From an uncultured Planctomycetota bacterium (GTDB lineage Bacteria > Planctomycetota > Phycisphaerae > Tepidisphaerales > Tepidisphaeraceae), in contig CAWJEN010000005.1 in assembly GCA_963841915.1 (NCBI GenBank), forward strand, positions 288,001-352,000: 64,000 nucleotides of DNA, written 5' to 3'. Each line of letters opens with the position of its first letter. Positions within the stretch are counted from its first letter, which is position 1. Positions 28,947 through 37,633 of the stretch are shown in pieces. The position numbers and the translations under genes are program-made. The notes beneath the pieces were generated by a model. That model was not told the DNA's origin. It did not search any database and saw only the letters and a list, made by a program, of their open reading frames with translations.

Positions 28947-29861
28947 CTACGTCAAGCGGTCGATCACGAGCACGAGCAGCACGGCCGGCAGGTACGTGAT
29001 CGACACGAGGAACAATCGCCTCGCCGCCGACCGTTCGCCAGATTTGGCCATGCCGATCGCGGCCCACAGGTACCACACGCCCAAAGCCACCGCCGCCACG
29101 CCGTACAACCAGCCTGCTACGGGCGTCAGCGTCGGCACGAGCGACAGCGGAATAAGTGCAGCACACCAGCCGACGACCTGCCGGGCCGTCCGCCGCGTGC
29201 CGTCGGGTTCGCTCGGCAGCATGCGGAATCCGCCGGCGGCGTAATCGTCCTTGAATAGCGTCGCCAGGCCGAAGAAGTGCGGCATCTGCCACGCGAAGAG
29301 CAGCCCAAAGAGCCCGACGGCCAACAGGTCGATCCGCCCCGTCGCCGCCGCCACACCGATGGCGGGCGGTATCGCACCGGGCACTGCTCCGACAATCGTG
29401 CACCAAGGCGTCCGCGTCTTGAGCGGCGTGTAGATCGCCACGTAGCTCACGATCGTTGCCAGTGACAAGCCGGCTGCCAGACCGTTGACGAACAGCGCCA
29501 GGTACGCCACGCCCAGGACGCAAAGCACGACGCCGAGGGCGAGTGCGAACCCGGGCGTCAAGGTCTTTGTCGGCAACGGTCGGCCACGCGTGCGTTTCAT
29601 GCGGCCGTCGGCAATGCGCTCGACGTGCTGGTTCAACACGCCCGCGCCCGCCGCCGACAAGGCCGTGCCCAGCAGCGTGTGGGCCAGCAACGGCAAGTCT
29701 CTGAACCCGGCCGCGGCGAGATAGCCCACGAGGGTCGTGATAAGGACCAGCAGATTCAGCCGCGGCTTTGTCAACTCGTAGACCGCCGCCAGCTTGTCCG
29801 TCTTCGACGCGCCCGACAACTCATGCCCCACGTCGGCAGTCAGGGCAGAAGGTCGGCTCAC
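28947..29861 (-). CDS. ctaB: Protoheme IX farnesyltransferase (heme o synthase)
   Basis: LTKPR, NQ..E..D..M.RT..RPLP, YTPLK, WQMPHF, DYA.GG. Confidence 0.93.
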   Translation of the reverse strand: MSRPSALTADVGHELSGASKTDKLAAVYELTKPRLNLLVLITTLVGYLAAAGFRDLPLLAHTLLGTALSAAGAGVLNQHVERIADGRMKRTRGRPLPTKTLTPGFALALGVVLCVLGVAYLALFVNGLAAGLSLATIVSYVAIYTPLKTRTPWCTIVGAVPGAIPPAIGVAAATGRIDLLAVGLFGLLFAWQMPHFFGLATLFKDDYAAGGFRMLPSEPDGTRRTARQVVGWCAALIPLSLVPTLTPVAGWLYGVAAVALGVWYLWAAIGMAKSGERSAARRLFLVSITYLPAVLLVLVIDRLT

Positions 29862-31105
29862 GTGAGGGCAGCGTACGGCGACGGGGAAGCGGCCTCGGCA
29901 ACATCTTTGGCATAGCCGGCCGGGGCGGGAAGCAGACCGTATTGCCGAATCAGCCGCGCCGCCAGCATCGACACCGTCAGGAGCAGCAACGCACCTGTTG
30001 CCACGTGCAGCGTCGCGATGTCGGCCGGCTTGCCGAGCCACACCGTCGCCACGCCCAGAGTCACCTGCACACCGACCAGGCCGAGCACCAGAAGCACGTG
30101 ACCGCGCGCGACGTTCCAAAGCCGCCACGTCACCCACAGCACCACCCCGCAGATGAGATAGGCACCGAGCCGGTGCGCCACGTGCAACCAGACCTGAGCC
30201 AGCGATACGGCTGGCAGGTGGTAGTCGAACCGTCGCTCGACGTTGACGGCCTGCAACGCAGACGCGTCGGTCGGCGGAACGATCTGCCCGTAGTGCGTCG
30301 GCCAGTCCGGCACCGCCAGGCCGGCTCCGTTGTGCCTCATCGCTGCGGCAATCACGAGCTGGCCCACGCACAGCACCAGCAACGTCACCGCAGGCCACGA
30401 CACGCTCGGCTGCCGGACAGCCTCGACGCCCTGCCACCATCGGCTCGTGGCGATGACGGCCAGCCCGCCGACGCAGAGCGTGAGTTGGCCGAAGATGCCG
30501 TGGACCATGGCCAGGTCGGTCGAGTCGAAGACGACACGCAAGCCGCCGAGCAGGCCTTGCAGGCAGACGGCCGTGAGCAGTCCCACCGCCAGTCGGCGGA
30601 CCCAGACACGCTCGTCACGTTGATTGCGGATCAGCCAGGCGACGAGCGACGTGACGCCGACCGCCCCGCCGAGGCCGACGAGGTGGCCGATATTCTTGTT
30701 CGTTTCGTAGGCGAACGGGCTGACGGCCTTGATGAAGACGTAACTGCCGATGGCCACCGCGAAGCCGACGACAGCGGCGATACCCCATCGGCGGCGGGCC
30801 TTGGCATGATGCGACGCCCCAAAGGCCGCCAGAACGGTTCCGACGGCGGCGAAGCCGGCGACGGTGCCGAGCAGGCGGTGGAAGTGTTCGTGAAAGACGC
30901 CCCCCGCATCGCCGCCGAGCCAGTGGCTCCACGGAACGGCCCACATGTTGTAACCGAACGTGTTGGGCCAATCGGGCACCGCCATGCCGACGCCCTTGCT
31001 GGTCACAAGCCCGCCCATCCAGATCAGCGGAAACATCGCCAGCACCGTCGCGCACGCCCAGGCAAAGACGGCTCGGGATGGAGGCGGCGTTGACACGGTC
31101 TGCAC
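29858..31105 (-). CDS. ctaA: Heme A synthase (COX15/CtaA)
   Basis: GGLVTS..GMAVPDWP, EHFHR, MVHG, AHR, LHV heme-ligand His pattern. Confidence 0.88.
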   Translation of the reverse strand: MQTVSTPPPSRAVFAWACATVLAMFPLIWMGGLVTSKGVGMAVPDWPNTFGYNMWAVPWSHWLGGDAGGVFHEHFHRLLGTVAGFAAVGTVLAAFGASHHAKARRRWGIAAVVGFAVAIGSYVFIKAVSPFAYETNKNIGHLVGLGGAVGVTSLVAWLIRNQRDERVWVRRLAVGLLTAVCLQGLLGGLRVVFDSTDLAMVHGIFGQLTLCVGGLAVIATSRWWQGVEAVRQPSVSWPAVTLLVLCVGQLVIAAAMRHNGAGLAVPDWPTHYGQIVPPTDASALQAVNVERRFDYHLPAVSLAQVWLHVAHRLGAYLICGVVLWVTWRLWNVARGHVLLVLGLVGVQVTLGVATVWLGKPADIATLHVATGALLLLTVSMLAARLIRQYGLLPAPAGYAKDVAEAASPSPYAALT

Positions 31106-31173: not shown

Positions 31174-31283
31174 AACGGGCGAAGAGGCAAAGGGTCGCGA
31201 AGGAAGAGAAGAAGGAACAAAGGCCAACCTACTCGACCCCTTCTGCACCTTTGCGGACTCTCGCCCCTTCGCGTCTTCGCGTT
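31174..31283. repeat. Imperfect palindromic REP-like element overlapping the coxA 3' end
   Basis: GCGAAG/GCAAAG units on the left, CTTTGC/CTTCGC units on the right, purine-rich spacer. Confidence 0.45.
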
Positions 31284-32965
31284 CCTCGGATCGAGCTGAA
31301 AAGCATGTTCATCATCAGAAGCAGCTGAGCTGCCCCGAGCACGATGGCCGACACCGTCATCGCCTGTTGAGCCCATGCGAGATGCTCAAACATGTCGATC
31401 TTCGTCGGTTCGGCATAGCGGCGAGGCATGCCGAGAATGCCGAGCAGGTGCATCAGGCCGAAGGTGCCGTTGAAGGCGAGGTACGTCAGGGCGATGTGGA
31501 GCTTGCCGAGTGTGGCGTTCAGGTGGCGGCCGTTCGTCAGGCGTGGCCAGAGCCAGTAGAGCCCGGCGAACAGGGCAAAGACGCTACCGCCGAAGAGCGT
31601 GTAGTGCAGATGGGCGACGACGAAGTAGGTGTCGTGAAGCTGAACGTTGATGGCCGGTGCGGCGAGGATGAGACCGCTCAGGCCGCCGATGACAAAGCAG
31701 CTGACAAACGCGTAGGCCGCCCAGGTGGCCGGCGTGGACCGTGGCCTGCCGCGGGCGACCGTGGCGATCCAGGTGACAACGAGGACTGCCGACGGCGTGC
31801 CGATGAGCATCGTCGCGGCCGAGAAGACGAGTGCCCCGCCGGGGTCGAGGCCGCTCTGATACATGTGGTGCGCCCAGACGCCGAAGCCGAGAACACTGAC
31901 GGCGACGATACTAAGTGCCGCGGCCTTGTAACCGACGTACCCGCGGCCGTGTCTTGCGAGTACGTCGCTGACGATGCCGTACGCCGGCAGGATCATCAGA
32001 TACACGAGCGGATGGCCATAGAACCAGAACAGGTGCTGGTGCAACAGCGGCTGGCCGTCGCGGAGGGGGTTGAAGAAACCGGTGATGCCGTGCGCGTCGA
32101 GCAGGTTCATGACCATCGCGATGACGATCACCGGGCCGGCCAGCAGCCCGACAGATGCAGCGCTGGCCCAGCCCCAGACGGCCAGCGGCAGCCGAGGACG
32201 ACGCCGCGTCGCCACCGTGGCGACGAGCGATGCACCCGCCAAACAACCGGCAACCGCCCACATCCCGACAGCGGCGAACCATGCGGTTTGACCATCGAAG
32301 GCAACACGCTCCAAACCGCGCAGTACGACACAACCCATCACCGGCGAGATCATCACAAGGCCGATGAACCGCATAGCGGTGTCACCTCGATCACCGATGA
32401 TGACACGAAGAAGCTGCGCAACGAGCATCGTGGCTGTGGCCAACGTCGTCGCGAGCGCAAGTGGCGACCATCCCGACTGCACCTGATCGAAGCCCTCGCC
32501 ACGCGACAGGCGCAGCCAGCTCAACGCGTCGTGCTTGTACGGGTACCACTTTGCCCCGACTTCGTAGCCGCTCGACAAGGGCGCATAGGCCGTCCAGCCG
32601 GAGCCGGCCCAGCCGACGAGCAGGACGCTCGCTCCGAGCATCGTCAACCACCAACTGAACCATGCCACACCCGGCAGCGCCAGCGTTGTCCGGCACATCC
32701 GAGGCACGACCGCCAAACCCAGGCCCCACGTGATCGCCGGGACGACGACCAGCCAGATCATGATCGTGCCGTGCAGCGTGAACGTCTTCGCGTAGGTGTC
32801 GAGCGGCATCGCACCGCTTGGCCAGTCATGCAGCCACGACAGAATCGGCACGGGTGCGTCCGGCCACGCCAGCTTCCACCGCATGCCAAGCGCCAGCAAG
32901 CCGCCGAAGCCGAACATGAAGCCGGCCAACACCAGGTAGGCGCGACCGACGCCGAGGCCCTTCAT
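31229..32965 (-). CDS. coxA: Heme-copper oxidase subunit I, A-family-like, divergent
   Basis: LHGTIM, GWTAYAPL, WFYGHPLVY, WAHHM, HDTY..AHLHY, GMPRRY. Confidence 0.9.
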   Translation of the reverse strand: MKGLGVGRAYLVLAGFMFGFGGLLALGMRWKLAWPDAPVPILSWLHDWPSGAMPLDTYAKTFTLHGTIMIWLVVVPAITWGLGLAVVPRMCRTTLALPGVAWFSWWLTMLGASVLLVGWAGSGWTAYAPLSSGYEVGAKWYPYKHDALSWLRLSRGEGFDQVQSGWSPLALATTLATATMLVAQLLRVIIGDRGDTAMRFIGLVMISPVMGCVVLRGLERVAFDGQTAWFAAVGMWAVAGCLAGASLVATVATRRRPRLPLAVWGWASAASVGLLAGPVIVIAMVMNLLDAHGITGFFNPLRDGQPLLHQHLFWFYGHPLVYLMILPAYGIVSDVLARHGRGYVGYKAAALSIVAVSVLGFGVWAHHMYQSGLDPGGALVFSAATMLIGTPSAVLVVTWIATVARGRPRSTPATWAAYAFVSCFVIGGLSGLILAAPAINVQLHDTYFVVAHLHYTLFGGSVFALFAGLYWLWPRLTNGRHLNATLGKLHIALTYLAFNGTFGLMHLLGILGMPRRYAEPTKIDMFEHLAWAQQAMTVSAIVLGAAQLLLMMNMLFSSIRGTRRREGARVRKGAEGVE

Positions 32966-33750
32966 GGTGAAGCCTCGACAATCAGCTCGGCGACCATCGT
33001 CGTGTGCCCCCAGCCGCAGAACTCGGCACACAGGATCTGATACGTCCCCGGCGTCGTCGGCGTGAACCGCAACACGCCCTTCATGCCCGGCACGACGTCC
33101 ATCTTCGTCCGCATGGCAGGTACGAAGAAGTCGTGGATGACGTCTTTGCTCTGGAGTGTCACCTCGACCGGACGGCCGGCGGTGACGACAACGGAGCGGC
33201 TCAGGGCCGACTGGTAGACGTCGTCGCGGCCGAGCGGGTCGGCAAAGTCCTTGCCGATCGGGTCGACGACTTCGCGGTAACGGGCGATGGTGTCGTCGCG
33301 ACGGCCAGGTGGCAGGTCGATGGGCCCAGGGACGCCCGCAAAGGATTTGCCGTCGGGCCAGGTTTGATCGGTCGGTTGCGGCCAGACGAGGTAACTGCCG
33401 AGTTGGCCGTCCGGGCCGGGTTCGATGACGCTCCAGGCGAACTGTTCGCCGATGACGAGCACGCGTTGCACCTCAGCGTCGGCGTCGCCAAGGCGGCCGG
33501 CTTTGAGATCTTCCCACGCGTATTCGCTGATGATGAAGAGCCCGAGCAGGCCCAGTGCCGCGGCGACGGACCAGGCGACGGGCTTGCCGAATCGCGACCG
33601 CCTGCCGAGCCAGGCGACGAAGCCGCCGACGTGGACGATGACGAGGGCAACGCAGCAAACGGTGGCGAAGAGCCAGAGCAACGCATCGACCTCGCCGCCG
33701 CGTTTGGAGGCGGCCTCGGCGAGGTAGAGGGTCGTGGTCGAGGGCAGCAC
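32962..33750 (-). CDS. coxB: Heme-copper oxidase subunit II with CuA site
   Basis: Two TM helices, QFAW, DVIH, CAEFCGWGHTTM. Confidence 0.9.
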   Translation of the reverse strand: MLPSTTTLYLAEAASKRGGEVDALLWLFATVCCVALVIVHVGGFVAWLGRRSRFGKPVAWSVAAALGLLGLFIISEYAWEDLKAGRLGDADAEVQRVLVIGEQFAWSVIEPGPDGQLGSYLVWPQPTDQTWPDGKSFAGVPGPIDLPPGRRDDTIARYREVVDPIGKDFADPLGRDDVYQSALSRSVVVTAGRPVEVTLQSKDVIHDFFVPAMRTKMDVVPGMKGVLRFTPTTPGTYQILCAEFCGWGHTTMVAELIVEASP

Positions 33751-33816: not shown

Positions 33817-34593
33817 CTAAGCCGAGCGACGACGCAGGGCGATCAGACTTGCCATGGCCAAGACACCTGCGACGGCCGGTTCAGGCACGCTTCTCGCCGC
33901 CAGGACGCTGGCGTTGTCGAAGCCGGCGTCGAGCCATGAACCGTCGACGAGGTGCCCGGTGGCGCGGAAGGTAAAGTGCGTTGCCGTGTCGGGAATGGTC
34001 AGGACGGTCGAGATGTTGTCGCTCGACGTCGTCGGCACGGCACCACTCATGGCGATGTCGTCGACGCTGAGCGTCTGCAGGATGCCGCCGAGGTCGACGA
34101 GCCATTCGATTTCGACATCGAGCCGGTCGAAGAACGAGAACGCGTCGAGCGAAACCTTCACCTGCGGGGCGATGTCTGCCGGTAAGGCGGCGGTCTGCTG
34201 CAGGACGCTGGTCGTGCCCTTGTCCCATGAGCCGCTGGTGAGTGCGGTGGCAAAGGCGTCGTTGGTCCTACCCAGGCCCCCCTGACCGACGGGGTTGGTG
34301 CGGACTTGCCACTGCGGACCAGCGGTGGCGGGCGAGTTCCAGTACTGCGTATCACCCGTGTCGAAGGTGCCGTTGATGAGCAGCTCGTGGTACTCCCATG
34401 AAGGCTCGACTGGTGGCTGCGGGGTGTCGGGTTGGTCGACGGGTGGCTCGTCGGGGCCGTCGTTGTTACCGAAGGGGTCACCGTCGCCTCCACCGCCGAT
34501 GACGATGGCAGCCGAGGATGTTGCCGCGGCGACGCCGAAGGCGACGGTGGCCAATGCCGTCAGAGCGGCCAGGGGTGCAAGTTCTCGCTTCAC
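33817..34593 (-). CDS. PEP-CTERM protein
   Basis: Signal peptide; LLINGTFD beta-sandwich-like start; VPEP-hydrophobic-RRR tail. Confidence 0.85.
   Translation of the reverse strand: MKRELAPLAALTALATVAFGVAAATSSAAIVIGGGGDGDPFGNNDGPDEPPVDQPDTPQPPVEPSWEYHELLINGTFDTGDTQYWNSPATAGPQWQVRTNPVGQGGLGRTNDAFATALTSGSWDKGTTSVLQQTAALPADIAPQVKVSLDAFSFFDRLDVEIEWLVDLGGILQTLSVDDIAMSGAVPTTSSDNISTVLTIPDTATHFTFRATGHLVDGSWLDAGFDNASVLAARSVPEPAVAGVLAMASLIALRRRSA

Positions 34594-34702: not shown

Positions 34703-37633
<2,931 letters not shown>

Follow-up and report, generated by a model that had tools for sequence, protein, structure and literature searches.

The window, i.e. the whole 64,000-nucleotide stretch of DNA analysed here, contains an operon on the minus strand with the gene order subunit II, subunit I, ctaA and ctaB. 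The subunit II gene (32962..33750) codes for a protein of 262 aa with two membrane helices, a family-specific periplasmic insert and a CuA domain but no cytochrome c domain (TIGR02866 3e-28, below the cut-off). It overlaps at ATGA with the gene coding for subunit I, an A2-derived heme-copper oxidase catalytic subunit (31229..32965, 578 aa, TIGR02891 with 381 bits against a cut-off of 671). The oxidase pair is located directly upstream of the only ctaA gene found in the genome (heme A synthase, 29858..31096) and of ctaB (heme O synthase, 28947..29831, TIGR01473 with 249 bits, over the cut-off), both with inferred start codons. The coordinates given in the initial annotation for the two subunits, for L395 (31781-31783) and for the WFYGHPLVY stretch (32000-32026) are right. 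Genes for subunits III and IV are absent from the operon in the clade to which this locus belongs, and a promoter scan returned 0 sites, which is uninformative at this GC content.

As was originally noted, all the metal-binding and catalytic residues of subunit I are kept, namely H65, H318, H366, H367, H452 and H454, the cross-link tyrosine Y322, the H444-D445 pair and the R515-R516 pair. The CuA motif of His, Cys, Glu, Cys, His and Met is intact in subunit II, with Cys-x-Glu-x-Cys-x3-His-x2-Met at 32995..33030 and the upstream His in 33127-33141, all on the minus strand like every other feature described below.

The loss of both proton channels, also claimed in the initial annotation, was borne out. 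HMMER alignments to plant and bovine COX1 place L84 at N121, T94 at D132 and A101 at N139 of the D channel, all within the region of the channel mouth (32663..32728), where W80 has been gained. The phmmer range to R. sphaeroides 1M56 (query 302-403 to 268-370) equates H318, L320, Y322 and L395 with H284, E286, Y288 and K362, thus confirming Leu at both the E286 and the K362 site; the R. sphaeroides labels beyond those anchored on 1M56 follow the usual numbering as transferred through the HMMER COX1 alignments. The helix VI stretch YG-H-P-L-V-Y (32000..32020) keeps the CuB His and the cross-link Tyr but has Leu at the E286 site, and its Tyr-Gly pair lacks the Ser of the A2-type Tyr-Ser (YS) pair. 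Residues S201 and N207 of the D channel, not covered by the initial annotation, are lost as well throughout the clade. Y33, S142, S299 and a Ser at T359 are still present in this copy, and out of these four sites only the Ser/Thr at T359 is conserved across the clade. In subunit II the LExxW motif with the K-channel entry Glu is replaced, according to sequence comparison, at 33571..33582, and the loop preceding it is shorter by about 14 residues than in the family orthologues; LExxW is found in none of the nine proteins with the clade motif (two of which are partial or start past the site) versus 52 of 59 others. With Leu fixed at K362, S299 variable and the entry Glu gone together with the loop, the lower K path looks sealed. 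Misalignment as the cause of the apparent losses was ruled out by HMMER, MAFFT and the range mapping to 1M56, a proper alignment restoring no Lys, Asp or Glu equivalents.

The clade includes five of the 141 family genomes according to a motif scan, four of which (G000, G001, G003 and G004) represent one genus and the fifth is G060, as well as metagenome proteins. Searching with the protein recovered six homologues of 57-68% identity plus a partial sequence, after which identity drops to 45%, and a profile run against 1.84 billion representatives yielded one more fragment. The gene pair is dispensable, as this type of subunit II was found in only 49 of the 141 family genomes (92 are without it) and the pair was not found in G002, a member of the same genus with 89% completeness. 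The unpublished genome G006 counts only in the 141-genome tally and in the 24-genome tally given below.

All the close homologues share the substitutions, which are thus not due to chance: Leu occupies the K362 site in 10/10 clade rows, and Leu at the E286 site and a Tyr-Gly or Tyr-Ala pair are present in every row, so the loss is indeed concerted, as had been proposed. In 6/6 clade genes there is no variation at the ligands, the cross-link Tyr, the Mg site or the Arg pair, even though synonymous sites are nearly saturated. Among 243 intact homologues 68 columns are at least 95% invariant, 45 of which are kept in at least 90% of the clade rows, those that have disappeared altogether being mainly channel residues, the loop at the D mouth, D407 and two positions following helix X.

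Omega values estimated with IQ-TREE (MGK+F3X4) are 0.11-0.12 for subunit I of the clade and 0.08 for its catalytic core, compared to 0.117 for five intact orthologues and 0.06-0.08 for the ACIII-linked paralogue; the operon partners show 0.19 (subunit II), 0.21 (ctaA) and 0.14 (ctaB). Fixing omega at 1 worsens the fit by about 267 log-likelihood units (three genes). The GY+F3X4 omegas of 0.01-0.13 were set aside in favour of MGK owing to inflated tree lengths, both sets being far below 1, and the NG86 ratios of 0.21-0.52 exceed the maximum-likelihood values because synonymous sites are close to saturation. A pseudogene or relaxed selection is therefore ruled out, omega being far below 1 and equal to that of the intact orthologues. 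Against this, the protein diverges some 2.5-fold faster than the canonical paralogue in terms of dN, and the members of the genus share 69-77% identity versus 86-92% for the canonical copy. The subunit II gene of G001 is frameshifted in the assembly, and since the cupredoxin gene of the same genome is split too, an assembly error is likely to be behind the frameshift.

In the PMSF tree, which contained no B sequence, the clade (SH-aLRT 100, stem 1.02) nests inside the second A2 oxidase of the family (support 100), and its nearest kin are without D132 but retain YS and K362 (supports 93 and 93). This tree, obtained by a quick search with no bootstrap, comprised 49 rows; ten trait columns had been taken out, and P0124 was omitted for its long branch. 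A further analysis gave a similar placement. The long stem of the clade is followed by renewed constraint. The second-oxidase relatives in named records are Tepidisphaeraceae, the closest named locus being that of an uncultured Planctomycetota MAG, which suggests a Tepidisphaeraceae-like planctomycete as the host. A FastTree had joined the clade to P0135, P0140 and P0243, but this apparent case of long-branch attraction vanished under the mixture model.

The intact operon of the family has the order II-I-ctaA-ctaB-cupredoxin-III-IV-ABC. G071 and G072 have altered residues at D132, N139 and D407 but retain K362 and the Glu of subunit II, and their loci are without III/IV except for a 40-bit remnant in G072; such intermediates are predicted to be electrogenic but not to pump. 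At the clade step K362, YS and the subunit II Glu are lost as well. The cupredoxin gene is still in the operon in G060 and has moved elsewhere in the genus. Tree and gene order together trace the clade back to the second A2 oxidase in a Tepidisphaeraceae-like family, via kin without D132 and III/IV but with K362. Subunit III is reported to support D-path proton uptake (PMC8361435), so it makes sense that both were lost together. An orphan 240-residue COX3-like gene is present in all five clade genomes; BLAST does not support the G000 copy (C3:118239-118961) as the relocated subunit III of this operon, and its product could be a partner of subunits I and II.

All five clade genomes also possess a canonical-scoring A-type oxidase, which lies within an ACIII operon in G000, G001, G003 and G004. 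The ACIII-linked A2 copy of G000 keeps YS, D132 and K362, and no other COX1-family gene was found in that genome. In the five genomes, which are 80-98% complete, no bd oxidase, nirS or SURF1, no nirK above the family cut-off and no NOR or intact cbb3 subunit I were found. A CcoN/CcoO-like fusion occurs in G003 and G004, and G060 has a third oxidase with the K to Gln change. The ctaA gene beside the oxidase is the only copy found in each of the five genomes. Out of 24 genomes sampled from the 92 without this type of subunit II, 23 have ctaA, and in 15/15 loci fetched from them ctaA-ctaB are without adjacent subunit I/II genes, one having a canonical oxidase about 12 kb off and two ending within 2 kb upstream; in five of these loci the flanking TPR gene directly adjoins ctaA. 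The extra periplasmic gene of the operon encodes a plastocyanin-like cupredoxin, in which the His, Cys, His and Met residues do not vary, a cytochrome c label being wrong for this sequence. As the cupredoxin persists where subunits I and II are gone, it is not a dedicated electron donor. A PAS kinase gene near the operon is not a conserved neighbour.

The AlphaFold2 model of subunit I, built with seven sequences, has a pLDDT of 73, a pTM of 0.79 and 14 long helices, two above the usual number, and its Foldseek TM to R. sphaeroides and bovine subunit I is about 0.7. Subunit I carries about 90 inserted residues, including two additional membrane helices predicted from the model and hydropathy (residues 167-221, 32303..32467) between helices III and IV. 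Tyr329 (31979..31981) is gained in 10/11 clade rows (L141 and P0008 among them are probably one gene) versus 0/356 other rows, from which those with the clade helix VI motif plus Tyr329 were excluded as clade duplicates. According to the phmmer range to 1EHK with no helix VI gap assumed, Y329 equals ba3 Y244, S392 equals S309 and L395 equals T312, while T398 aligns with T315 (ba3 K-path residues as given in PMC3141039). The upper end of a B-like path is, judging from these alignments, present, and its middle and mouth are missing.

Other residues fixed in the clade are W80, Y495, N440 (D407N) and T456 (V423T), the latter two in the region 31598..31648, which also contains the His-Asp Mg site and the heme ligands His452 and His454. 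At the periplasmic end of subunit II helix 2 there is Glu76 (33523..33525), a clade gain at a position usually occupied by Lys in the family. An acid (E/D) is found there in 6/6 clade loci versus 1/23 family loci (two loci dropped, as their anchor motif is missing) and in 8/9 clade versus 2/59 other subunit II proteins from the database (two dropped). D407N and the subunit II Lys to Glu/Asp change are fixed changes on the periplasmic side. Subunit I offered no newly acquired series of acidic residues leading from the periplasm to the binuclear site, a point against periplasmic proton supply.

The six His and the helix VI cross-link Tyr place the protein among the heme-copper O2 reductases, and an A-type subunit I with a CuA subunit II speaks for A-family descent, A-type matches having E-values of about 1e-60 versus 1e-19 for ba3. 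Based on the defining residues of the A and B families described in PMC3084760, Asp124, Asn199, Asn113, Asn131 and Ser193 of the D channel (Paracoccus numbering) are all replaced, with the Tyr35 and Ser134 sites alone kept in this copy and neither conserved in the clade. The A1-type Glu278 is represented by Leu and the A2-type Tyr-Ser by Tyr-Gly or Tyr-Ala. As for the A-family K channel, Lys354 is Leu in 10/10 rows, the Ser/Thr at 351 is kept, position 291 is variable and the entry Glu is absent. Tyr322 is kept and no Glu motif is present, unlike in the NO reductases (cNOR, qNOR, bNOR, eNOR, sNOR, gNOR and nNOR). Judged by defining residues, the enzyme is therefore not A1, A2, B or any NOR family.

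The fold, the ligands, the Tyr, the Mg site and CuA of the clade are those of A2 aa3/caa3 oxidases (YSHPxVY), a group to which both the family's intact second oxidase and the ACIII-linked paralogue belong, and orthology and synteny with ctaA-ctaB are shared as well. It differs from them in being without the D channel, YS, K362, the entry Glu and operon III/IV and in having D407N, V423T and Tyr329. The ba3 oxidase of Thermus thermophilus (1EHK) likewise has no D channel and no Lys, with Tyr at the 244 site and Ser at the 309 site, but its Thr312, Tyr248 and subunit II Glu15 have no equivalents in the clade. The E286 site is aliphatic in ba3 as well, and B-family enzymes are not known to possess a subunit III. 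K-channel loss with the D channel kept was described in acidophilic iron oxidisers, Thioclava and others by Degli Esposti et al. (bioRxiv 2020.03.01.968255; PMC8239418). Such A2 oxidases also have a hydrophobic residue in place of K354/K362 and no COX2 entry Glu, but keep the D channel and are described as deep-branching, whereas the present clade is a recent twig in a K-bearing planctomycete family and has lost the D channel too. The K-channel table of PMC8239418 includes no planctomycete. Nothing on this clade or on the loss of both channels in a bacterial A-type enzyme was found in the literature covered; subscription journals (including Degli Esposti 2020, BBA) and bioRxiv supplements lay outside this scope and may bear on the point.

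To our knowledge, all characterised heme-copper O2 reductases take up cytoplasmic protons via at least one conserved channel. The locus described here holds a real, selected and traceably derived variant of the A2 oxidase, and a selected enzyme without either channel would show that O2 chemistry fed from outside is possible or that some other path exists. Since both cytoplasmic channels are closed, pumping is very unlikely, while the kept Tyr, CuB ligands and CuA suggest O2 reduction with periplasmic electrons, the cross-link Tyr being retained only by O2 reductases according to PMC11214002. It is tentatively suggested, with somewhat less than even confidence, that this conserved two-subunit A2-derived oxidase with its ligands kept and both channels replaced is a slow, non-pumping O2 reductase taking its chemical protons from the periplasm; a non-pumping enzyme fed by outside protons was also among the options offered in the initial annotation. 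A shade more cautiously, it can be proposed that an A-fold O2 reductase has evolved in traceable steps to work with no cytoplasmic channel, as a non-electrogenic, uncoupled respiratory valve replacing bd oxidase. Electrons would pass from a periplasmic carrier, with the plastocyanin-like protein and the ACIII cytochromes as candidate donors, via CuA and heme a to heme a3-CuB, where O2 would be split in the ordinary way by the His-Tyr cofactor, and protons would enter on the same side as the electrons via the Mg/water region above the heme propionates. As such a reaction would conserve no energy, the enzyme may act as an accessory outlet for surplus electrons, or as a scavenger of O2, alongside the pumping oxidase linked to ACIII.

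This reading is supported by the location of D407N and the subunit II Lys to Glu/Asp change on the periplasmic side, as well as by the coexistence of a canonical ACIII-linked oxidase with no bd oxidase found in the five genomes. Reportedly, turnover supported by back-flow in D132A mutants provides a precedent. In the same fold, protons are described as coming from the periplasm in cNOR and, during NO reduction, in cbb3 (PMC3431322). The non-electrogenic cNOR, likewise without a cytoplasmic channel, is a proposed functional analogue, but it differs in belonging to the C branch and in lacking the Tyr, and it has a cytochrome c subunit as well as an FeB held by Glu ligands. Removal of the D-path Asp/Glu in canonical A enzymes is reported to block proton uptake and impair activity (PMC8361435), so turnover in the clade may be very low.

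What also counts against this reading is the dispensability of the gene pair, the faster divergence of the protein, the frameshift in G001 and the gain of the ba3-type Tyr, which could instead reflect a rebuilt cytoplasmic path. An O2 reductase using cytoplasmic protons by such a route, either a B-family-like path (Tyr329, Ser392 and waters) or the H-pathway region, would be electrogenic with little or no pumping and represent A to B convergence; this we consider unlikely. The match of Y329, S392 and T398 to ba3 Y244, S309 and T315, together with the near-exclusive presence of Y329 in the clade, speaks for it, as does the order of losses, with the D channel and subunit III going first and K362 kept, which fits the A-to-B route proposed in PMC11214002. 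However, the T312 site is Leu in 10/10 rows, the Y248 site is S/G/T, the T315 site is variable and the subunit II entry Glu is absent. The equivalents of H456 and Y437 are invariant (H-pathway residues as listed in PMC12901375), but H-pathway residues are conserved in the intact relatives as well and the bacterial H pathway is reported as not carrying protons (PMC8361435). Rather improbable is an intact O2 site kept for work that needs few or no channel protons, such as removing peroxide or NO, or binding O2/CO/NO slowly in a redox-buffering or sensing role. The loss of both channels with CuA and the electron path kept speaks for it, and K362M mutants reportedly show peroxidase activity. The NO or N-oxide chemistry that the initial annotation had considered finds no backing in a protein with the Tyr kept and no NOR Glu motif or in the five genomes, where no nirK over the cut-off, nirS or NOR was found; nor was any supporting evidence found for the sensory role it had offered, there being no fused signalling domain and no conserved PAS kinase beside the operon.

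The position directly upstream of the only ctaA and of ctaB, the failure to find SURF1 in the five genomes and the published precedent of a deranged COX1 beside ctaB in Acetobacter (PMC10715153) would fit a non-catalytic heme a/copper store or a scaffold for ctaA/ctaB. This is very doubtful: the Acetobacter protein, which is likewise an altered subunit I kept next to heme synthesis genes, is described as having lost all metal ligands, whereas the clade keeps all of them plus CuA, the Tyr and the Arg pair, and ctaA-ctaB standing without subunits I/II in 15/15 loci from genomes without this type of subunit II indicate that no such scaffold is needed. Highly improbable, and already largely refuted by the omega tests, is a redundant oxidase slowly decaying toward deletion. 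About two thirds of the family are without the gene pair by the subunit II query and none was found in G002, the G001 subunit II gene is frameshifted and identity within the genus is lower than for the canonical copy; despite that, omega equals that of the intact orthologues and is below the values for ctaA and ctaB of the same operon, the replacement residues are themselves fixed, and the split G001 cupredoxin gene points to an assembly error.

The family thus presents a living series from an intact oxidase via one without the D channel and subunit III to one with neither the D nor the K channel. With this series, the A-to-B route that has been proposed, the part played by subunit III and the exit path's direction become open to direct tests. 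The clade is rare and uncultured, and its ecological weight is limited. Annotating its members as proton-pumping cytochrome c oxidases would overstate energy conservation.

As regards the undescribed heme-copper oxidase subfamily suggested in the initial annotation, the clade fits none of the defined families tested, but it is only a small derived twig of the A2 oxidase of one family, and channel loss, judging from the alignments, recurs in other A-family lineages. In a profile-biased set of 284 non-redundant rows, K362 is missing in 63 rows from 11 FastTree groups, and nine rows outside the clade are without all three key sites. A metagenome scan with the helix VI motif yielded nine loci, one of which belongs to this clade and the other eight to unrelated K-less oxidases.

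Directly upstream of the subunit II gene of the channel-less oxidase, and on the same strand, lies a gene coding for a PEP-CTERM protein (window 33817-34593), which is not conserved as an operon neighbour among the relatives. A hybrid histidine kinase with a GAF-PAS-PAS-PAS domain arrangement is encoded at 34703-37633 of the window, and related kinases are found near the operon in two genomes of the clade, G001 and G004, at differing positions. In G004, an ORF of 583 residues with no Pfam match is inserted between the genes for subunit I and ctaA (locus L114:10533-12284).

Across the family, ctaA-ctaB is accompanied by a cupredoxin gene, including at loci lacking subunits I and II. In the clade genome G000 it is located on contig C6 (748644-749402, corresponding to L172:5645-6403), is annotated only as hypothetical, and codes for a plastocyanin-like protein with a CarboxypepD_reg-like domain at the C-terminus and a likely lipoprotein signal.

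All five clade genomes possess a second COX3-family match of an orphan kind, represented in G000 by a COX3-like gene of 240 residues (C3:118239-118961, L165) which is divergent from an hflX-like gene. G003 (C136:1122-3050) and G004 (L144:2282-4312) also encode a fusion protein of 676 residues, in which a degenerate membrane domain resembling CcoN is joined to a CcoO-like heme c domain; this fusion was not found in G000, G001, G060 or G002, the last being a genome of the same genus as G000 that was not found to carry the clade oxidase.

With regard to the canonical ACIII-linked A2 oxidase, G004 contains two operons, on C61 and C79 (L123, L125), which may reflect duplication or contamination (3%). 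In G000, the SCO1 and subunit II genes form a single 733-residue frame (C6, about 1513126-1515327; L003:13127-15328), the cytochrome c domain end of which appears frameshifted compared to G001 and G004; both features are possibly an assembly error.

Altered channel residues also occur in other oxidases. A widespread A1-type lineage has Gln at K362 while retaining E286, with mostly Asn at the D132 site and mostly Val or Leu at N121; its hosts include Acidobacteriota, Microvirga, Opitutus, Gemmatimonadaceae and others (loci L023, L034, L036, L038, L039, L042, L048-L051, L053, L059, L060, L064, L066, L075, L076 and L079, together with L142). A I+III fusion oxidase of G060 is related to this lineage. 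In the metagenome oxidases L128, L130 and L132-L135 the helix VI motif reads HPLVY, K362 is replaced by Glu, and the second Arg of the subunit I RR pair by Gln or Glu. The K362 site is occupied by His in L129 and L131.
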